Positions 1-57,823 are shown, counted from the first letter of the stretch. The stretch is DNA of 64,000 nucleotides from Patescibacteria group bacterium (GCA_023474425.1 JAMCXX010000002.1:68217-132216); one strand, 5' to 3'. Numbers and translations are program-made. The notes: a model not told the origin generated them from the letters alone.

Positions 1-1226
1 AAGGTCTCCAAAACAACCGAAACAACAATCAGGATTCCTGTGCCGCCGAGGGAAAAAGTGGTAACTTGGGTTAATCCCTGGCCGAGCGATGGCAAAACGG
101 CCATAAGCCCCAAGAAAACGGCCCCGGCCAAAGTAATCCGCTGGAGAATGTTGCCCAAATAATCGGCCGTGGCTTTGCCCGGCCTAACCCCGGGAATAAA
201 ACCGCCGTACCTTTTAATATCGTCGGAAATTTTCTCGGGGTTAAAAGTCACGGCCGTATAAAAATAAGTAAATGCCACCACCAAAAGAAAATAAAAACCG
301 TTGTAGAAAAGACTTTGGGTCGAAAAGGCCTGGGAAAGAAAATTAGAGAAATTTATGAGCATTAGATTCTGACCAAAACCCTTGAGGTACTGGGCAATTA
401 GAGTCGGCAGCAAAACTAGGGAAATGGCAAAAATAATGGGAATCACCCCGGCCTGATTGACTCTTAATGGCAGGTAGGACCGTACTGAGCCCAGGCTGCG
501 ACCGGCCCGATTGCGCCGGGCATACTCCACTGGCACCTGGCGAACGGCCTCGTTAATATAAACAACTCCGGCCACAATAGCCAAAGCCAGTGCGCCGAAG
601 ATTAGAACGTTGGTGGAATTTTCCGCTGTCGCCGAAAGCAAAGTCTGCCCCAAGCCAGTTGGAAAACCGGCCACGATACCGGCAAAAATAAGAACAGAGA
701 TGCCGTTGCCCACGCCGCTTTCGGTTAAGATTTCTCCTAACCAAACTAAAAAAACGGTTCCGGCCGATAGCGATAGAACCAGGGTAAGGAGCGGCAATGG
801 CGCGAGCCTCCCCACAATCCCTTGGGAAGAAAGCAGAAAATAGGTAGCGTAAGCCTGAAGCAGAGTTAGCGGCACCGTTAGAAACCGGGTATATTGGTCT
901 ATCTGCTCGCGCCCGGATTCTCCTTCTTTGGAGAGCTCCTCGAGTTTGGGATAGACCATGGTTAAAAGCTGCATAATAATGGAAGCGTTAATATAGGGGT
1001 TTAAACCCAGGGAGACGACGGAAAAGTTTCTAAACGAGCCGCCGGAAAAAAGATCAAAAAGTCCCAAAAAAAGATTGCCGGCAAAAAGAGAACGCAGAGA
1101 AGCGATATTGACCCCGGGAATAGGTACATGGGAAACTACCCGAAACACCGCCAATATAATAATGGTGTAAATAATTCTGCGGCGAAGATCCGGCAGGGAC
1201 CAGACCTTCCTAAAGATGTCAAACAT
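1..1226 (-). CDS. secY: Preprotein translocase subunit SecY (partial; C-terminal part lies beyond the window start)
   Basis: Absent from the ORF track because it runs off the edge. Hand translation from ATG at 1226-1224 gives MFDIFRKVWSLPDLRRRIIYTIIILAVFRVVSHVPIPGVN...LGLNPYINASIIMQLLTMV...EGESGREQIDQYTRFLTV, a SecY N-terminal signature. It lies directly downstream of rplO, as in spc operons. Confidence 0.9.
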   Translation of the reverse strand, partial: MFDIFRKVWSLPDLRRRIIYTIIILAVFRVVSHVPIPGVNIASLRSLFAGNLFLGLFDLFSGGSFRNFSVVSLGLNPYINASIIMQLLTMVYPKLEELSKEGESGREQIDQYTRFLTVPLTLLQAYATYFLLSSQGIVGRLAPLPLLTLVLSLSAGTVFLVWLGEILTESGVGNGISVLIFAGIVAGFPTGLGQTLLSATAENSTNVLIFGALALAIVAGVVYINEAVRQVPVEYARRNRAGRSLGSVRSYLPLRVNQAGVIPIIFAISLVLLPTLIAQYLKGFGQNLMLINFSNFLSQAFSTQSLFYNGFYFLLVVAFTYFYTAVTFNPEKISDDIKRYGGFIPGVRPGKATADYLGNILQRITLAGAVFLGLMAVLPSLGQGLTQVTTFSLGGTGILIVVSVVLET

Positions 1227-27263: not shown

Positions 27264-29090
27264 TTAACCTTCAACCTCGCCCCGGATGCGTCTAACGCCG
27301 GACGAGACGGCTTCCTCTTTAACAATTTTAAACCTTTTAAGCTCTCCGGTGTAATGGGCATGAGGGCCGCCGCAAAGCTCTTTAGAAAAATATTCGCCGG
27401 TGGTTTTTTCGGGACCGATTCTATACAGAGTCACTCTGTCCACGCTCTGGTACTTCTCTTCAAAGAGTGCTTCGGCGCCCTGGCTTCTGGCTTCCTCGAA
27501 AGAAGTGGTCAAGCATTCCACGGGAAGATTTTGGGCAATAGCGCGATTGACTAATTCCTCCACTTTCGCAAGTTCTACATCCGTCAGCTTACGTGAAAAA
27601 TTAAAGTCGTGGCGGAAAGACTTTTCGCTTATCTTTTGCCCCATCTGGTGGACTTCTAATCCTAGAATTTTCTTGAGAGCTGCGTTTAGAAGATGGGCGG
27701 CCGTGTGGGCGGTTTTAATTTTCTCCGGATCATACGCAGTTGCAGCGCGGGCGTCCCTCGACCTGTCCTTCTGCCTGGCCAAATTTTCCTCGAAGGCGGC
27801 CACGTCGACGTCAAACCCCTTGGCCTTGGCCAGGTCAACTGTTAAGTCAACGGGAAAACCGAGCGAGTCGTACAACCTGAAGGCAAAATCACCACCAACC
27901 TTTTTATTAGGATTTTTTCGTAAGTACTTGTCGAGTTCGGCCATCCCTCTTTTTAAAACGTCTCCGAACTTTTTCTCCTCATCTTCCAAAAGTTCGTGAA
28001 TGACGCTGTGAGTCTGGGCCAGATTTGGATAAGCTTCCTGAAACTCATTAACCACGGTTTCAGAAAGTTCGGAAACAAAGTAACCTTCAATTCCCAAAAG
28101 ATGACCGTGGGCAATAGCTCGGCGGATTAAGCGGCGCATAACATAACCTGCCTCTACATTGCTCGGGACTAAACCATCACTGGCCAAAAACGTAGACGCC
28201 CGCACGTGGTCGGCAATAATACGGACCGAACGTTCGTTAACGCGTTCGGCGGTAATCTTGGCTAGGGATTCTATTTCGGAGATTAAGGGCTTAAATAGAT
28301 CTGTATCGTAGGCGCTTTTGCCGCCCTGCAAAACCATGGCGAACCGCTCTAAACCCGCACCGGCGTCCACACTCTTTATGGGTAGGCTTTCCAAACTGCC
28401 ATCGGCTTTGCGCTCATAAGTCATAAAAACGCCGGCGTTCCAAATCTCTAGAAACCTGCCGCAGTCGTGAGTAGGCCCGCAGTCCGCCCGACCGCAGCCA
28501 AATTCCGGACCCAAGTCATAAAGAACATCGGTATTGGGACCGCAGGGGCCTTGTGGGCCGGAAAACCAAAAAGAATCTTTAAGGGGTAAACCAAGAATCC
28601 GTTCCGATCTGATACCCAAATCCAGCCAAATTTGACGGGTCTCGTTGTCTGGCGGCACACTGGACATACCACTATCGCCGCCAAAAACGCCAAAATACAG
28701 CTTGCCTTGGTCTATACCAAACTCCCTTAATAACTCAAGGGCAAATTCACATGCTTCCTTCTTAAAGTACGGGCCCCTGCCTTCCTTACCAAAAGGTTTA
28801 CCAATTTGACCAATACTCCAATTGCCCAGCATTTCAAAAAAAGTCAGATGGTGAATGTCGCCTACCTCGTCTATATCGTCGGTGCGTACGCATTTTTGAA
28901 CATCGGTTAGCCTTAACGAGGGAGGATTCTTTTGGCCCAAAAAATATGGTTTTAGGGGGGCCATACCGGAGTTGGTCAAAAGAAGTGTGGGGTCATACTC
29001 GGGAATGAGTGAAGCCGAGGGCAATCTTAAGTGCCCCCGCTTTTCAAAAAATTCAAGGAATTTATTTCTGATTTCGTTGTGTGACCACAT
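27264..29090 (-). CDS. alaS: Alanine--tRNA ligase, short form (608 aa; no C-terminal C-Ala/DHHA1 region)
   Basis: N-terminus MWSHNEIRNKFLEFFEKRGHLRLPSASLIP...LLTNSGMAPLKPYF. Editing-domain motifs HTAAHLL...CGGPH lie near the C-terminus. Confidence 0.92.
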   Translation of the reverse strand: MWSHNEIRNKFLEFFEKRGHLRLPSASLIPEYDPTLLLTNSGMAPLKPYFLGQKNPPSLRLTDVQKCVRTDDIDEVGDIHHLTFFEMLGNWSIGQIGKPFGKEGRGPYFKKEACEFALELLREFGIDQGKLYFGVFGGDSGMSSVPPDNETRQIWLDLGIRSERILGLPLKDSFWFSGPQGPCGPNTDVLYDLGPEFGCGRADCGPTHDCGRFLEIWNAGVFMTYERKADGSLESLPIKSVDAGAGLERFAMVLQGGKSAYDTDLFKPLISEIESLAKITAERVNERSVRIIADHVRASTFLASDGLVPSNVEAGYVMRRLIRRAIAHGHLLGIEGYFVSELSETVVNEFQEAYPNLAQTHSVIHELLEDEEKKFGDVLKRGMAELDKYLRKNPNKKVGGDFAFRLYDSLGFPVDLTVDLAKAKGFDVDVAAFEENLARQKDRSRDARAATAYDPEKIKTAHTAAHLLNAALKKILGLEVHQMGQKISEKSFRHDFNFSRKLTDVELAKVEELVNRAIAQNLPVECLTTSFEEARSQGAEALFEEKYQSVDRVTLYRIGPEKTTGEYFSKELCGGPHAHYTGELKRFKIVKEEAVSSGVRRIRGEVEG

Positions 29091-29516: not shown

Positions 29517-29548
29517 GGTCTCGCAGAGCGAGACCTTGCTCCGCAAGG
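29517..29548 (+). repeat. Double-hairpin module, copy B
   Basis: GGTCTCGC-AGA-GCGAGACC sharing CC with CCTTGC-TCC-GCAAGG. Starts 11 nt after the GIY-YIG stop, and its last GG is the first GG of tRNA-Cys. Confidence 0.75.
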
Positions 29549-29621
29549 CGCAGTGGTGAAGAGGTAACACGGCTGTCTGCAAAACAGCTACGCAGCGGTT
29601 CGATTCCGCTCTGCGCCTCCA
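29547..29621 (+). tRNA. tRNA-Cys (GCA), CCA encoded
   Basis: Hand fold: acceptor GGCGCAG/CTGCGCC, D arm GTG-AAGAGGTAA-CAC, anticodon arm GCTGT-CTGCAAA-ACAGC, T arm AGCGG-TTCGATT-CCGCT, discriminator U73, then CCA. Confidence 0.9.
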
Positions 29622-29805: not shown

Positions 29806-31500
29806 TCACTTCTTATTTCCCAAACAGGATTTAACAAAGGATATAAAGAGTGGGTGCGGGTTTAATGGACGGGATTTATATTCCGGATGAAATTGCGTGC
29901 CGACAAAAAATGGATGAACCGATTTGGGAAGCTCCAGTGCTTCCACCAATTTTCCGTCCGGAGATAAGGCACTAAAGACTAAACCCGCAGCTTCCAATTT
30001 TTGACGAAACTCATTGTTGACCTCATACCGATGCCTGTGCCTCTCTTCTATTTGGACATCCTTCTGACCTTCCGCCTTTGCCGAGGCTACGGCGGGCGGG
30101 CCTTCCAACCTATACGCCTCCTCGATGACCGATCCTCCTTTGAGGATCGCCGGCCATGAGCCGAGTCTAATTGTTCCGCCGTATTGATGAGCTTCCAGAT
30201 ATTTCTTCTGGTCAGGCATAATATGAATGACCGGATAAGGAGTTTTTGCGTCTGCTTCTTCGGAATTAGCACCGGTGAGACCACAAACATTCCGGGCGTA
30301 TTCAATAACAGCCATCTGCATACCAAAGCAAAGCCCCAGGTACGGGATTTTATTTTCCCTGGCAAACTTAATCGCCTCAATTTTCCCTTCGGTACCGCGA
30401 GAGCCCCAACCTTGGGGAATAACTACGCCATCAAATTTTAATTTGCTAACGCCCTCGGCGGTAAGTTCCGTGGAGTCCACGGGAACAACATTAACCTTTA
30501 CTTTATTAAACGAGGCGGCATGTTTTAGCGCTTCTAGAACAGAAACGTAGACATCTTTATGGCTGCTCTGGCCGTGGGTCACGTACTTCCCAACCAGGGC
30601 AATGTTTACTTCTTTTTTGGCTGTTTCCAAACCGGAAATAAAACTTTTCCACTCTTTAAAATCTGGCTCTTTTTCGGGGAGGCCGAATTTTGAAAGAATT
30701 TTTCTAGTGAGTCCGTTTTTATTAAAATTTACGGGGAGGTTATAAATTAAATCCAAATCAGGGTCGTCAAAAACGGCATCATCGTCCAAAAAACAGCGCT
30801 TGGCCAAGGTTTCACGGCGGGGTTCATCCAAGGGAACTTCGTCGCGGGTAATTAAAATGTCGGGGTTAATGCCGGCCTGACGCAAATTGGCCACGGCGTG
30901 TTGGGTGGGCTTGGTTTTAAGCTCACCCACATTTCTTAAAAACGGAACATAGGAAACCAGCACATAAAGGGCTTGCCTTTCGCGCCCCATTTCCCTAGCG
31001 GCATAAAGAAAGGGCAGATTTTCTATGTCGCCGGTGGTTCCGCCCACCTCCACCACTACAAAATCGTAACCATTTTCGCCCTCGTAAAAGCGTCTTTTAA
31101 TTTCGTTGGGGACGTCGGGAATCATCTCCACATCCCGGCCCTCATATTTAAACGAACGTTCGTTGGCAATAATGGTGCTAAAAATTTTGCCGGAAGTCAG
31201 ATTGTTTTCTTTGGAAAAGCTTTGGTTAAGAAACCGTTCGTAGTTGCCCAAATCCTGATCTATTTCGCCACCGTCGTCGGTCACAAAAACCTCGCCGTGT
31301 TCGGCCGGACGCATGGTTCCGGCATCAACGTTCAAATAGGGGTCAATTTTAAAAAGGTTAACTTTGTACCCGCAGGATTTAAGAAGAAGCCCAATGGAAG
31401 CAGTCACAATGCCTTTGCCGAGGCCGGATAAAACTCCGCCAACGACGAAAATGTATTTGGGAAATTTTTTAGAAACAGCATTCGACCGCGGCACAATCAA
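29806..31500 (-). CDS. pyrG: CTP synthase
   Basis: 564 aa with KYIFVVGGVLSGLGKG, plus GLCFGMQ and HRHRYEVN from the glutaminase domain. The start may be GTG at 31494 rather than TTG at 31500. Confidence 0.95.
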   Translation of the reverse strand: MIVPRSNAVSKKFPKYIFVVGGVLSGLGKGIVTASIGLLLKSCGYKVNLFKIDPYLNVDAGTMRPAEHGEVFVTDDGGEIDQDLGNYERFLNQSFSKENNLTSGKIFSTIIANERSFKYEGRDVEMIPDVPNEIKRRFYEGENGYDFVVVEVGGTTGDIENLPFLYAAREMGRERQALYVLVSYVPFLRNVGELKTKPTQHAVANLRQAGINPDILITRDEVPLDEPRRETLAKRCFLDDDAVFDDPDLDLIYNLPVNFNKNGLTRKILSKFGLPEKEPDFKEWKSFISGLETAKKEVNIALVGKYVTHGQSSHKDVYVSVLEALKHAASFNKVKVNVVPVDSTELTAEGVSKLKFDGVVIPQGWGSRGTEGKIEAIKFARENKIPYLGLCFGMQMAVIEYARNVCGLTGANSEEADAKTPYPVIHIMPDQKKYLEAHQYGGTIRLGSWPAILKGGSVIEEAYRLEGPPAVASAKAEGQKDVQIEERHRHRYEVNNEFRQKLEAAGLVFSALSPDGKLVEALELPKSVHPFFVGTQFHPEYKSRPLNPHPLFISFVKSCLGNKK

Positions 31501-31528: not shown

Positions 31529-31652
31529 TATGGGGGTTACTTGTGAATTCTGCTTCAGATTTTCACATCCGGAAATGTTTGAGAACCCGCGGTACTATCT
31601 GGAAAAGACGTTATTCATTGTGCCAACTCGTTAAGAGAATCCGTATCAAGCT

Positions 31653-31792
31653 ACATAAACCTCGTGCGACCCGCCTGCCAAAGCTAATTTTAGAAAATTT
31701 ATCTAACCATAGGAGAAGAACAATTAACCAGGTCTAATTTGGTTTGGGGTTTGGGCATAGCGGGCAGGTCGCACTATAAAAATGTAGTTAGG
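31653..31792 (+). repeat. Conserved structured intergenic element, copy 1 (core 31664-31774)
   Basis: Aligns by eye at roughly 85-90% identity with 55745-55888. The ends CGTGCGACCCGCCTGCC and GGCATAGCGGGCAGGTCGCAC are mutually complementary. Confidence 0.7.
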
Positions 31793-31847
31793 ACTAATGT
31801 CATTCTGGCCGCAGTCCAGAATCATTTATTGGCTAATAAGATGGGGT

Positions 31848-32444
31848 TTAAAGAAATTTGAAAGTGGAGATAATGCTGTTTTCTATTTGGTTAATGTCCT
31901 CAGCCCTTGTTTGAACGAATATTTCGGCCATAAGAGCACGCTTAACACTACGAATGTTTATTAGCCAGCAATACCCAGCTTGACAATACTCTCGGTGCGC
32001 CTCAGCCGATTCTCCGTTGATAATAAGGGAATTTCTTTTGAAGACTCCAGCGGACTTCATCATTTTCGCCGTGGAAGATGTACTAAAGCTATCAACGATT
32101 TGCTTTGGGGTTAGGCCTAAATATCTGTAGACGGTGAAATCGATAAAATACAAGTTTGGGCTTGGATCCGCTATCGCAATTTGCACCACGTCCTTAGTGT
32201 TGATTTGGGCAAAATTATTAAATGTTGGGTCACTTCGCTTTTCCAGCTTCCAGGAAGAGGGATATTTAAATGTAAAACCATAGTCGTTGTTTATGTATGT
32301 TTTCCAATTCGCGGTTTCATCGGTTAGTGTAGAAGCTGACGGAGTACTAAGGGGGCTTTGAGTTGGTGTGGGCGTCGCGGCTGGAGTTTGATTGGGGACG
32401 GGAACCTCGGTTTTGGGAGTGTAGGGGCTACGAGGCCTAACCAT
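31848..32444 (-). CDS. Hypothetical protein with a Pro/Thr-rich N-terminal linker and a beta-rich domain; no signal peptide or TM found
   Basis: 198 aa with lower GC than its surroundings (about 37-43% in two hand-counted 60-nt lines). In-frame stop 4 codons upstream of the ATG. Confidence 0.5.
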   Translation of the reverse strand: MVRPRSPYTPKTEVPVPNQTPAATPTPTQSPLSTPSASTLTDETANWKTYINNDYGFTFKYPSSWKLEKRSDPTFNNFAQINTKDVVQIAIADPSPNLYFIDFTVYRYLGLTPKQIVDSFSTSSTAKMMKSAGVFKRNSLIINGESAEAHREYCQAGYCWLINIRSVKRALMAEIFVQTRAEDINQIENSIISTFKFL

Positions 32445-54941: not shown

Positions 54942-55673
54942 TTATTTTGAGGATTTTCCGATTTCGACAATCAGAGAACGGAGAAATTTAAAGAGCGGCA
55001 GAACCTTTTTATAAACCATCCGCCGCGGGCCAATGACGCCAAATCTTAACGGTTTCTTACTATCCGCCACTTCGGTAAAAACCAAGCAAACCGGCAAAAG
55101 ATTGGGGTTGCCCAGCTCTTCGCCCATCAAAATGTGTATTTCCCTGTCGGCCGTAGCCTTATTAAGAATTCCGCCCAAAATGTCTTCGTGATCCAAAAGG
55201 TTAAGTACGGCCCGGGTCACCTCAATGTCGAAAAATTCCGGATGATTTAAAACATTGACGGCGCCGGAGTGAAGAACATACTCGTCTCCAGTAGAAACAA
55301 AAGATAAGTAACCGGTATTTTCGGACAAAGTCAGAGCCAACTTACCCAAAAGTTTTTCCGTCTCAAACCGGTCCGCCCAGAGGCGCTGCTTAACGGCCAC
55401 TTCGGTGAGTACCGGCATAACCTCCTCCTCCATGAGGGAATCCAGATAGAGTCGCAGTCCAAGGGGTGTGGGCACCCGCCCCGAGGAGCTGTGGGTTTTG
55501 GCGACCAGTCCTTTTTCAATTAACTTGACCATCTCGTTCCTTACCGTCGCCGCCGAAACTTTAAGGCCGTGCTTTTTGACCATCTCCACCGAGCCTACCG
55601 GCTTGGCCGAGTTAATGTAGTCCTCAATGACAATTTTTAAAAGGTCTGTTTGCCGTGAAGTTGGTTGTTCCAT
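54942..55673 (-). CDS. hrcA: Heat-inducible transcription repressor HrcA (short form)
   Basis: Contains SRQTDLLKIVIEDYINSAKPVGSVEMV...SAATVRNEMVKLIEKGLVAKTHSSSGRVPT. ATG at 55673; the tracked TTG at 55682 is less likely. Confidence 0.88.
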   Translation of the reverse strand: MEQPTSRQTDLLKIVIEDYINSAKPVGSVEMVKKHGLKVSAATVRNEMVKLIEKGLVAKTHSSSGRVPTPLGLRLYLDSLMEEEVMPVLTEVAVKQRLWADRFETEKLLGKLALTLSENTGYLSFVSTGDEYVLHSGAVNVLNHPEFFDIEVTRAVLNLLDHEDILGGILNKATADREIHILMGEELGNPNLLPVCLVFTEVADSKKPLRFGVIGPRRMVYKKVLPLFKFLRSLIVEIGKSSK

Positions 55674-55682
55674 CCTTAGCAA

Positions 55683-55744: not shown

Positions 55745-55888
55745 TACAAAAATGCCGTGCGACCCGCCTGCCAGAGCTAATTCCCGGAAAGCTTATCTAA
55801 CCATAAGAGAAAAACAATTGACCAGATCTAATTTGATTTGGGGTTTAGGCATAGCGGGCAGGTCGCATGGTAAAAAAATGTAATTAGG
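55745..55888 (+). repeat. Conserved structured intergenic element, copy 2 (core 55756-55868)
   Basis: Same orientation and architecture as 31653-31792. Lies between lepA and the hrcA promoter. Confidence 0.7.
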
Positions 55889-55924
55889 TTCTGCGCTGAT
55901 TTGGCTAAATTCCAGATATATCTA

Positions 55925-57775
55925 TCAACTAACCTTTAGCAACTTGGTAAAAACTTCCTTGGGGATATCTATTTTGCCAAACCTTTTGAGTCTCTCCTTG
56001 CCTCTCTTTTGTTTTTCCAAAAGTTTGTCTTTGCGCTCGCGGTGGCCTCCGCTCATCTTGGCCAAAACATTTTTACGCATGGCTGGGATATCCTCACGGG
56101 CAACGATCTTTCCGCCAACGGCGGCCTGAATAGCCACAGGAAACTGCTGGCGCGGCAGGAGATCTTTGAGCTTAGCCGTAACAGCTTTGCCCAATTTTTG
56201 GGCCTTTTCTTTTACGACTATTTGAGACAGAGGATCAACCGGCTCACCCGCCACCAAAATATCCAAACGACAGACCTCGGCCGGACGAAACTCCAAAAAT
56301 TCGTAATCCAGGGAAGCATAACCCGATGTAGTAGATTTGAGCTTGTCATAAAAGTCATAAAGCATTTCCGAAAGAGGCATTTGGTAAGTAACCTTCACCG
56401 AGCTGCCCAAGTATTCGGTACCAAAAGGAACTCCCCGATATTCCTGACAAAGATTCAAAACAGTCCCAAGATAAGCTCCGGGAACGAAAATAGAAACTCT
56501 TAACCACGGTTCACTAATTTTTTGCTGGCCGTAAATAACCGGAAGATTGGAAGCGGAATTTATTAGGATTTTTTCCCCTGCTTCCTTTTCCAAGAGGTAG
56601 GGTACGGATGGAAGGGTTGTAATCAAGTCCATTTTGTATTCGCGCTCTAACCTCTCGCGAATAATGTCAGAATGCAAAAAACCTAAGAAACCGCAGCGAA
56701 AACCGTTACCGAGGGCTTTGGACGACTCCGGTTCAAATGTAATACTGCTATCGGTGAGATATATTTTTTCCAGGGCCGTTCGAAGCTTCAGGAAGTCTCC
56801 CCCGTTTAAAGGATAGAAACCCAAATAAACCATTGGCTTTGGCTCCCGATAGCCGGGTAGCGGGGCAATTGAAAATTGAGAATTGAGAACTGAGACTTTT
56901 GTGATGGTATCGCCAATCTTAATTTTTCTTAAGTCTTTTACTCCCGTGGCCACATAGCCAACCTCTCCTACCAAAAGACGGTCAACTTTTTCCCTCTTAG
57001 GAGAAAAAACTCCAAGCTCTATGCAGGCCGCCCGGAAATTATTTGAAAGAAAAAGAAGGTCATCGCCAATGTTGAGCTCGCCGTCAAATACCCGAACAAA
57101 GGCCAGAGCGCCCAGGTGTTCGTCGTAGACGGAATCAAAAATAAGCGCGCGCAGGTTGTGGTTATCCATCGAAGCGGGCGGCGGAATCTTTCCTAAAATA
57201 CTTCCTAAAAGTCCTTCTACGCCCTCCCCGGTTTTCGCCGACCCAAGAAAAATGTCCTCGGATTTCATACTAAAAGCGTCTTCCAATTCGCGAACAACCT
57301 TTTCGGGCTGCGCGGCAGGAAGATCTGTTTTATTAATAAAAGCGATAATCTTTAACTTCTGTTCCATTGCTTTGTAAACATTGGCCACGGTTTGGGCCTC
57401 AATCCCCTGCGTCGCGTCAACTACCAAAACAGCCCCTTCGCAGGCGGCCAGCGACCGCGAGACCTCGTAACCAAAGTCCACATGCCCGGGCGTGTCAATC
57501 ATGTTGAGCTGATAGTCGGGGGCCCCCAGAAGCTTTAGCGAAGTGGGGTTGTAGTTCATCCTAACAGCCTTAAGCTTTATGGTGATTCCGCGTTCGCGCT
57601 CCAAGTCCATAGAATCCAGAAACTGCTCGCGCATTTCCCGCCTGGTTACGGATCCTGTTAACTCCAAAATACGGTCGGCCAGCGTGGATTTTCCGTGATC
57701 CACATGGGCAATAATACTAAAGTTTCTAATCCTTTCCGGACCGTAAGAGGTAGCGCTTTCATTTGCTTTAGACAT
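55925..57775 (-). CDS. lepA: Elongation factor 4 (LepA)
   Basis: Contains [28 protein letters not shown] and the LepA C-terminal domain. Start at MSKANES (ATG 57775). Confidence 0.95.
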   Translation of the reverse strand: MSKANESATSYGPERIRNFSIIAHVDHGKSTLADRILELTGSVTRREMREQFLDSMDLERERGITIKLKAVRMNYNPTSLKLLGAPDYQLNMIDTPGHVDFGYEVSRSLAACEGAVLVVDATQGIEAQTVANVYKAMEQKLKIIAFINKTDLPAAQPEKVVRELEDAFSMKSEDIFLGSAKTGEGVEGLLGSILGKIPPPASMDNHNLRALIFDSVYDEHLGALAFVRVFDGELNIGDDLLFLSNNFRAACIELGVFSPKREKVDRLLVGEVGYVATGVKDLRKIKIGDTITKVSVLNSQFSIAPLPGYREPKPMVYLGFYPLNGGDFLKLRTALEKIYLTDSSITFEPESSKALGNGFRCGFLGFLHSDIIRERLEREYKMDLITTLPSVPYLLEKEAGEKILINSASNLPVIYGQQKISEPWLRVSIFVPGAYLGTVLNLCQEYRGVPFGTEYLGSSVKVTYQMPLSEMLYDFYDKLKSTTSGYASLDYEFLEFRPAEVCRLDILVAGEPVDPLSQIVVKEKAQKLGKAVTAKLKDLLPRQQFPVAIQAAVGGKIVAREDIPAMRKNVLAKMSGGHRERKDKLLEKQKRGKERLKRFGKIDIPKEVFTKLLKVS

Positions 57776-57823
57776 AAAAATAAACTTTGACACTAAACCG
57801 AAGCGGGAACTATATTTAAGGTA

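Follow-up and report, generated by a model that had tools for sequence, protein, structure and literature searches.

Two copies of a short palindromic DNA element lie 24 kb apart in the 64,000-nucleotide stretch of a Patescibacteria group bacterium genome analyzed here (the window; JAMCXX010000002.1:68217-132216). Copy 1 occupies the space between a PsbP-like open reading frame (ORF) and pyrG, and copy 2 that between lepA and hrcA, with grpE and dnaK downstream of hrcA (Table 1). Every gene neighbouring the copies is on the minus strand, so that each element follows a stop codon (by 74 nt for the PsbP-like ORF and 57 nt for lepA) and precedes the next promoter-like site, at 136 nt upstream of the -35 box of pyrG and 47 nt upstream of that of hrcA. 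A first-pass annotation of the window had put copy 1 about 130 nt upstream of the pyrG promoter, downstream of a low-GC hypothetical gene, and copy 2 about 35 nt upstream of the hrcA promoter, downstream of lepA. We propose that both copies are probably small mobile repeats, belonging to a family with members in several phyla; four family members carry tRNA genes.

Anatomy of the two copies

The copies share the same orientation, and the look-alike intergenic stretches recognized in the first-pass annotation are 84% identical (121/144) across the intervals it gave and 88% identical across the palindrome GTGCGA...TCGCA (31664-31773 versus 55757-55867). Similarity extends past the inverted ends, as had been noticed, and the best local alignment spans the full homology blocks of Table 1. 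Both copies are bounded by the complementary GTGCGACCCGCCTGCC...GCGGGCAGGTCGCA, and the longer complementary closing ends described before are also present (the extended palindromes of Table 1). The 20-mer GGCATAGCGGGCAGGTCGCA at the 3' end of the element occurs exactly twice in the window (0.01 occurrences are expected from shuffles), and has no exact match in species-representative genomes. The G+C content of the window is 46-51%.

On either strand the dominant fold pairs the ends GACCCGCCUGCC and G(G)CGGGCAGGUC in a helix of about 11-12 bp containing one C.A mismatch and one U.G pair. GUGC/GCAC lengthens this helix in the window genome, and the 4 extra base pairs are common to copies 1 and 2 and absent from the wider family. 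What had been read as two mutually exclusive extensions of each end are rather two halves of this one continuous helix. Further in, AAAGC...GGGCATA in copy 1 and AGAGC...AGGCATA in copy 2 contain an inner GC(C)...GGC helix. An internal hairpin with a U-A to C-G swap had been offered as a sign of covariation, but the comparison rests on two sequences and the hairpin is outside the minimum-free-energy fold of copy 2. The fold z-scores are modest, at -1.9 (copy 1) and -4.9 (copy 2) on the plus strand and -2.6 for both on the minus strand, where the hairpins are predicted at -37 to -40 kcal/mol. The terminator-like hairpin ATTCTGG-CCGCAGT-CCAGAAT noted beside copy 1 does exist on the plus strand; it probably lies outside the mobile unit, and there is no counterpart at copy 2.

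The wider family and its insertion sites

Copy 2 is present in contigs whose HrcA is identical. Two contigs with 72% HrcA identity (L220 and L221) have a lepA-hrcA spacer of 57 nt without the element, and the hrcA promoter block ATTGACAnGCTGTCAG...TATTAGAGTGCTAAGGATGG is kept in L217-L224. At the other locus, two contigs with 86-89% PyrG identity (L226 and L227) keep the pyrG promoter block CTTGACT...AAGAATTGATTGTGCC and have no arms upstream. Copies 1 and 2 are lineage-specific insertions, not a conserved small RNA gene. We note that in one relative, L222 (2790-2900), a different GC-rich repeat, ..GCTGAGGTCTACGACCCGAAGCATCC...GAGCTCAGGATGACG.., fills the space upstream of hrcA; small repeats have evidently inserted between these genes more than once.

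The family was gathered by a gapped search for the two arms, then with a looser pattern, and then by a relaxed search of the collected DNA. The gapped search gave 94 metagenome stretches matching the arm termini, the slightly looser one at least 120 stretches in species-representative genomes (with about 20 metagenome or genome matches in GC-rich coding DNA discarded as chance), and the relaxed one about 190 low-GC instances in 57 sequence clusters. The defining termini are 5'-(N)ACCCGCCTGCC ... GCGGGCAGGT(N)-3', which form the 11-12 bp helix with its C.A mismatch and U.G pair and are exact in both window copies. Family members end in 5'-(N)A^CCCGCCTGCC...GCGGGCAGG^T(C)-3', where ^ marks the limits of the unit, with a fuller consensus of 5'-(N)A CCCGCCTGCC (A/T)nnGC(C) ... 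GGC(A/T)nn(G) GCGGGCAGG T(C)-3' and a short inner helix of GCC/GGC or AUGC/GCAU. The unit measured from CCCGCC to GGCAGG is 98-105 nt long, with a mode of 101-103, and the window units of 99 and 100 nt fit this range. The interior, or payload, of about 75-80 nt is hypervariable and cannot be aligned between clusters, and the termini are identical over 10-12 nt across phyla.

A covariance model, R1, was built from 45 members with both window copies excluded. In the window it matches copy 1 (31668-31770, plus strand) with 57.8 bits (E ~3e-18) and copy 2 (55761-55864, plus strand) with 55.0 bits (E ~3e-17). Scores fall to 19.8 and 15.2 bits on the reverse strands of the two copies, and no other match exceeds 10.5 bits. 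Because R1 was made without the window copies yet finds exactly those two, their family membership is established independently.

Members on long contigs are found in Desulfatiglandales (1.4 Mb), Candidatus Buchananbacteria (53-62 kb), Gammaproteobacteria (61 kb) and other Patescibacteria (51 kb; Uhrbacteria; Saccharibacteria), as well as in Syntrophaceae, Anaerolineales and Omnitrophota, and one copy is on a viral contig. Many copies occur in some metagenome-assembled genomes (MAGs) such as Desulfobacterales CSMAG_2677, with at least nine in one Desulfobacterales MAG. Copies are solitary and mostly one per contig. Relative to co-directional neighbours, 16 copies have the same orientation and six are antisense, as are both window copies; convergent gene contexts (six) outnumber divergent ones (two). 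Some forms are shorter, among them a class of 68 nt and 'empty' hairpins 26-45 nt in length, and nested and tandem mosaics occur too. At three loci (L078 16-219, L054 and L072) adjacent head-to-tail elements have a common junction, ...GGCAGG^CCTGCC..., which suggests tandem or nested insertion. In one metagenome cluster (cluster 2: L001, L009, L014, L024, L047, L065, L069, L070, L084-L087 and L090) the element is within a unit of about 330 bp that has the ends GGAATGGATTC ... GAATCCATTCC and holds the hairpins CGGCCTTCGGCCG and CCTCGCCGCAGGCGA(GG); this looks like a composite or nested MITE (a miniature transposable element with inverted repeats). L036 has a c-di-GMP-I-GGC riboswitch (1127-1202, minus strand), whose 65.8 bits exceed the gathering score, at a distance of about 180 nt from its full-length element.

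Genes for IS91-like transposases (Zn_Tnp_IS91 plus Y2_Tnp) have been struck repeatedly, at three sites and in sense orientation every time (L051 340-2002, and also L013, L043, L032, L033, L038, L050, L031 and L091). Empty versions of the three sites are present at other loci and read ..EQIYDERFEKQYG.., ..SSHVPDKGEQMVRYYG.. and ..FIEDEEVIKKILNHLGLW..; removal in silico of the 103 nt from CCCGCC to GGCAGG from the filled sites yields ..VYEDRFERQYG.., ..CSHVPNKGKQMVRYYG.. and ..EEVIEKILKHLGLW.., in which the motifs YEDRFE, SHVP and EEVI(E/K)KIL are restored. Since exact removal restores the empty-site sequence, insertion was exact, between A and T (GA^TC, CA^TG), and generated no target-site duplication. 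The exact boundaries assigned to the copy 1 unit are those inferred from these filled and empty sites at related loci. The lack of a duplication had been remarked on in the first-pass annotation, and it holds; as a property of the family, however, it is not evidence against mobility. L051 contains two elements and, apart from them, 39 nt derived from a different repeat (CGGTTCGACATGCTCACCGCCCTGAGCTAAGTCGAAGGG); without these three inserts it is an intact ORF of 447 aa with both domains. Many IS91-like hosts are decayed fragments. Applied to all copies, the in-silico excision test shows no general excess of in-frame, sense insertions in ORFs, and most copies are intergenic.

Two copies in an Uhrbacteria-like population, from the same element cluster as L099, are inside aminoacyl-tRNA synthetase genes, at oriented positions 9368-9470 of L040 (CysRS) and 815-917 of L006 (PheS). 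Both are in frame and stop-free. Including the flanking CAACGCAGAT repeats the inserts are 135 nt (CysRS) and 156 nt (PheS, in the zinc knuckle), and compared with solved homologues, which are continuous at these points, the proteins have 50 and about 52 extra residues, respectively. Translation of the insert, but not its splicing, would lead one to expect a unit length divisible by three (102 nt) and the absence of stops. The N-terminal part of the L006 PheS (about residues 20-34) has a second in-frame insertion, ..VQSSKFKVQSDEVAAQR.., derived from a different short tandem DNA repeat and missing from the solved homologue.

tRNA genes as payload

Four members of the family carry a complete tRNA gene as payload, to which the Rfam tRNA model gives 71-76 bits (Table 1). 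In each case the element has lodged in a second, co-oriented tRNA gene, within or close to the anticodon loop, and in all three hosts that can be read the anticodon of the host is that of the payload (UUCA^UAA, CUUA^UA and CACA^U, with ^ at the interruption). The L004 host is unreadable; that of L167 ends at the contig end, and its interruption was read directly. Among 185 unique instances these four are the only ones in tRNA genes, with none of the 181 lacking tRNA cargo in such a location. Relative to the host tRNA the arms are sense in two cases and antisense in two, and the host tRNA genes are structurally intact after removal of the unit. Purifying selection accounts for why only a cognate replacement is tolerated within a tRNA gene. 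No sub-threshold tRNA matches that would indicate a decayed tRNA were detected in 20 generic payloads. A literature search on tRNA introns in Patescibacteria and nested tRNAs found nothing relevant, and we know of no description in bacteria of a tRNA gene between arms that is nested in another tRNA gene. A second small repeat, (T)TCCGCC-NNN-GGCGGA, often following TCAGCC-NAA-GGCTGA, is located beside or within the interrupted host tRNAs of L182 (~1226) and L004 (~4397), and elsewhere (L192 6815 and 7029; L201 2950).

The arrangement is reminiscent of split and intron-containing archaeal tRNAs, in that the four genes are interrupted near the anticodon loop by a 12-bp GC-rich arm helix, and the tRNA halves of Nanoarchaeum equitans are joined via GC-rich complementary leaders of 12-14 nt. 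It differs in having no bulge-helix-bulge, in its bacterial hosts, and in that the interruption holds a second complete tRNA, with the same anticodon where the host is readable. It is possible, if on the whole doubtful, that the family as such is a cargo-carrying hairpin element, a cross-phylum 'cassette holder' with 12-bp arms and a payload of constant, tRNA-sized length, able to bring along a functional tRNA gene and to lodge precisely in the anticodon loop of a resident tRNA gene, one with the same anticodon wherever that of the host can be read. The window copies would then be cargo-less members, and the element would represent either a homing or addiction strategy, in which the host tRNA gene is wrecked and a replacement supplied, or a new protein-dependent bacterial intervening sequence; these would be properties not described for bacterial repeats.

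Table 1. Features of the window and tRNA-bearing members of the family
Feature	Location	Coordinates	Strand	Remarks
pyrG	window	29806-31500	-	
pyrG promoter-like site	window	31528-31500	-	
Copy 1, full homology block	window	31652..31836	+	flanks are AT-rich and carry imperfect direct repeats, CTACATAAAC / CTATAAAAATG; local alignment
Copy 1, extended palindrome	window	31664..31774	+	GTGCGACC...GGTCGCAC
Copy 1, 5' arm	window	31668..31679	+	GACCCGCCTGCC; invariant in family alignment
Copy 1, minimal inserted unit	window	31670..31768	+	CCCGCCTGCC...GCGGGCAGG, 99 nt; variable payload between the 5' and 3' arms; from regular expression and family definition
Copy 1, 3' arm	window	31760..31770	+	GCGGGCAGGTC; partner of 5' arm
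Terminator-like hairpin beside copy 1	window	31802..31822	+	
PsbP-like ORF	window	31848-32444	-	
hrcA	window	54942-55682	-	
hrcA promoter-like site	window	55710-55681	-	
Copy 2, full homology block	window	55745..55932	+	flanks with imperfect 11-nt direct repeat GTACAAAAATG / GTAAAAAAATG; local alignment
Copy 2, extended palindrome	window	55757..55868	+	GTGCGACC...GGTCGCAT
Copy 2, 5' arm	window	55761..55772	+	GACCCGCCTGCC
Copy 2, minimal inserted unit	window	55763..55862	+	CCCGCCTGCC...GCGGGCAGG, 100 nt
Copy 2, 3' arm	window	55854..55864	+	GCGGGCAGGTC
lepA	window	55925-57793	-	
tRNA-bearing element, Ile-UAU	L167	4879-4982		Desulfotomaculum MAG
tRNA-bearing element, Met-CAU	L181	3868-3968		Gammaproteobacteria MAG
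tRNA-bearing element, Val-CAC	L182	1248-1354		Saccharibacteria MAG
tRNA-bearing element, Val-UAC	L004	4432-4541		groundwater contig

Two short proteins encoded in the window fit a reduced Patescibacteria genome: HrcA (246 aa; 54942-55682), of which Pfam recognizes the C-terminal domain alone, and AlaRS (608 aa; 27264-29090). ARAGORN identifies a single tRNA-Cys in the window (29547-29621), and no tRNA or tmRNA at either copy.

Probable nature and mobility of the element

The first-pass annotation had considered a mobile element less likely than a small RNA gene or a protein-binding module. The absence of the copies in relatives, the dispersed family, the copies inside genes, the conservation of only the terminal helix, and the lack of a plus-strand promoter do not support this, and each copy is probably a non-autonomous, hairpin-forming (palindromic) mobile DNA element, similar to the repetitive extragenic palindromes (REPs), REPINs and Rickettsia palindromic elements (RPEs), of an uncatalogued cross-phylum family. 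The element inserts as an exact unit without target duplication, with an A/T junction in the filled and empty sites examined, and is dispersed, multi-copy, and present or absent between close relatives. It is tolerated mostly in intergenic DNA, and in essential genes only if in frame and stop-free. We infer that an enzyme with its gene elsewhere mobilizes the element in trans. Insertion without duplication, ends that form a hairpin, the preference for IS91-type genes (which use rolling-circle transposition and produce single strands), and the orientation bias point to a mechanism that acts on single-strand DNA, of the HUH/Y1 type (IS200/IS605- or RAYT-like). The window copies would be passengers, inserted in the spaces that separate the pyrG and hrcA promoters from the 3' ends of the PsbP-like gene and lepA, respectively, with any effect being secondary. 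The hairpin that they would form in the minus-strand mRNA could stabilize or end the PsbP-like and lepA transcripts, as REP elements do.

Several known systems are similar in part. Like REP doublets and REPINs, the element is short, GC-rich, multi-copy and non-coding, with no target duplication, and lies for the most part between genes, close to their 3' ends, and now and then inside a gene (PMC3733652). As in REP dimers, for which spacers of similar length and different sequence are documented, its spacers vary in sequence and keep their length; intragenic REP and RPE insertions are documented too, some of them in aminoacyl-tRNA synthetase genes (PMC3733652). The inverted arms of REP doublets, separated by a spacer of 20-100 bp, pair to give a single long hairpin, and so do those of the element. 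A REP unit, however, is a self-palindrome of 20-40 nt with a GTAG or CGTC tag (PMC3733652), whereas the arms of the element are not self-complementary, have no GTAG/CGTC tag, and have the termini (N)ACC.../...GGT(C), ending GACC/GGTC; moreover, these termini are cross-phylum and those of REPs species-specific. RPEs are palindromes of about 100-150 bp that lie in frame in essential genes and are translated, much as the CysRS and PheS copies appear to be. They are confined to Rickettsia and close relatives, differ in sequence from the element, and to our knowledge have no described tRNA cargo. Bacterial MITEs (Correia, ERIC, Nezha) are likewise non-autonomous, about 100-150 bp long, dispersed, polymorphic between relatives and bounded by terminal inverted repeats, which the element also has (GACCCGCCTGCC versus GACCTGCCCGC(C), imperfect at two positions). 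Classical MITEs differ in having a fixed-length target-site duplication and the terminal inverted repeats of a parent insertion sequence, while the element's filled and empty sites have no duplication. The IS200/IS605 elements and palindrome-associated transposable elements (PATEs), with duplication-free, hairpin-dependent, strand- and orientation-biased insertion beside a short target, may provide a plausible model of the mechanism. Both have separate subterminal left and right hairpins, whereas the ends of the element pair together; no linked Y1 gene was found around the copies. The mitochondrial GC clusters and hairpin elements of yeast, sponges and placozoans are also small GC-rich hairpins found in intergenic DNA and, in frame, in protein genes; they are organellar and of unrelated sequence. 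We class the family with the small palindromic mobile repeats, among which it is unusual for its cross-phylum termini, its length-constrained payload and its tRNA cargo.

A number of observations fit poorly with a mobile repeat of this kind. Identical termini of 10-12 nt across phyla are unusual, since REPs and MITEs are normally lineage-specific, and the strict length of the payload without sequence conservation has no explanation. Simple random insertion does not explain the presence of tRNA within tRNA, and purifying selection leaves the restriction of tRNA-bearing elements to that location unaccounted for. The A^T target rule is partly imposed by the search patterns, as unbiased secondary copies have other flanks, and we have dropped a strict A^T target. 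Many intergenic copies are between short, lineage-specific direct or tandem repeats, which is odd with duplication-free insertion. These repeats exceed shuffled controls and vary in length and offset; they include TTTAGGCAC 9-mers, CAACGCAGAT 10-mers and the heptamers TCGAATA and CCAACGT (for example at L105, L120, L152, L156 and L189; L018, L021 and L036; L026 and L099), and the equivalent in the window is GTACAAAAATG / GTAAAAAAATG (31652-31663/31775-31792 and 55745-55756/55869-55888). A fixed-length target-site duplication was rejected, given the variation in length and offset and the contradicting IS91 empty sites. Outside the minimal unit, the window copies have the 4 bp of added stem and AT-rich flanks in common, so the copied unit in the window genome may exceed that defined at the IS91 sites. 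Searches for Y1 and RAYT proteins by tblastn and ORF clustering around about 190 copies revealed no recurrent linked recombinase, the only recurrent ORFs being those of the IS91-like class, into which the element inserts and beside which it does not lie. In 1.3 Mb of loci we found no cognate RAYT gene bordered by the arms of the element, and the loci examined gave no convincing autonomous long version, in which arms at a distance of 0.2-5 kb would have a transposase between them. One Patescibacteria contig does encode a RAYT-like ORF near a copy of the element (L139 6581-7282; Pfam Y1_Tnp, with HIHLIV and YIYNNPV motifs) flanked on both sides by the palindrome GGTTCAAAGC(N6)GCTTTGAACC; because this palindrome is its own and different, the two form a separate REP-RAYT pair unrelated to the GC arms.

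A small regulatory RNA gene in two paralogous copies, with a plus-strand transcript ending at the terminator-like hairpin of copy 1, would agree with that hairpin, with the stable closed fold (a plus-strand z-score of -4.9 for copy 2), and with R1 scores far above those of the minus orientation. We nonetheless regard it as very unlikely, as there is no plus-strand promoter-like site before either copy and no terminator at copy 2, the element is missing from syntenic sites of relatives, family interiors are unrelated in sequence and structure, and copies lie inside coding and tRNA genes. The comparison with Rfam proposed in the first-pass annotation gives no match for a window copy at the gathering score or at E<=10, nor for the element at related loci (16 loci at the gathering score and 20 at E<=10), and generic payloads have no sub-threshold Rfam matches. 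Folding with RNAalifold, which the annotation had also proposed, retains in the almost gapless alignment of an 18-member cluster the arm helix alone, with no covarying or compensatory pairs, and the payload was rejected as a structured RNA. Searching the literature for the terminal 12-mers returned unrelated primer matches only. A primary function in cis, as a transcript-ending or mRNA-stabilizing hairpin or a protein-binding site that was exapted and is selected at both positions, seems unlikely rather than very unlikely. Both copies are 57-74 nt past a stop codon and ahead of the next promoter, the mRNA-strand hairpin is strong (-37 to -40 kcal/mol), convergent contexts prevail in the family, and REP elements are known to act in this way (PMC3733652). 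However, no U-tract follows the arms on the minus strand, close relatives have no element at the same sites, and the window offers only two cases, both in the minority orientation of the family.

That the arms mark an intron-like intervening sequence, cut from mRNA or tRNA by a host activity so that the interrupted genes are functional, is quite improbable. Removal of 103 nt does restore the frame at the three IS91-like sites, all sense, L051 is an otherwise intact ORF despite two insertions, the interrupted tRNA genes regain an intact structure when the unit is taken out, and introns too leave no target duplication. The unconstrained payload of about 80 nt is, though, too small for a group I or II catalytic core, the junction is a continuous helix without a bulge-helix-bulge, and the 102-nt stop-free, in-frame unit in CysRS and PheS fits translation and not splicing. 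Insertion in tRNA genes would not seem harmless either, given that none of the 181 tRNA-less elements are found there; the arm orientation to host tRNAs is mixed, and many IS91-like hosts are decayed. A site for integron-like or other site-specific recombination, an attC-like folded single-strand site with variable terminal structure, has the least to recommend it. The architecture is similar, with conserved ends that pair and contain a base that is mismatched or extrahelical, an internal loop, and a centre of 60-140 nt that varies, and the taxonomic spread of chromosomal integrons overlaps that of the family. There are no RYYYAAC or GTTRRRY boxes at the ends, copies are solitary and not in cassette arrays, and no recurrent integrase is nearby; the missing R boxes and arrays already largely refute this explanation, to which we assign next to no probability.

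Interpreted as mobile repeats, the two window elements should be annotated as such and not as small RNA genes, and they mark recent insertions beside the pyrG and hrcA-grpE-dnaK promoters. R1 can be used to mask or census these repeats. In-frame copies in essential genes of reduced genomes matter both for gene calling and for how protein 'insertions' of uncultured bacteria are read, and the nested tRNAs could bear on the origin of split and interrupted tRNA genes. The occurrence of the same termini in Desulfobacterota, several Patescibacteria lineages, Gammaproteobacteria, Chloroflexota and Omnitrophota implies either a widely shared or transferable mobilizing activity, or horizontal spread of the element itself.

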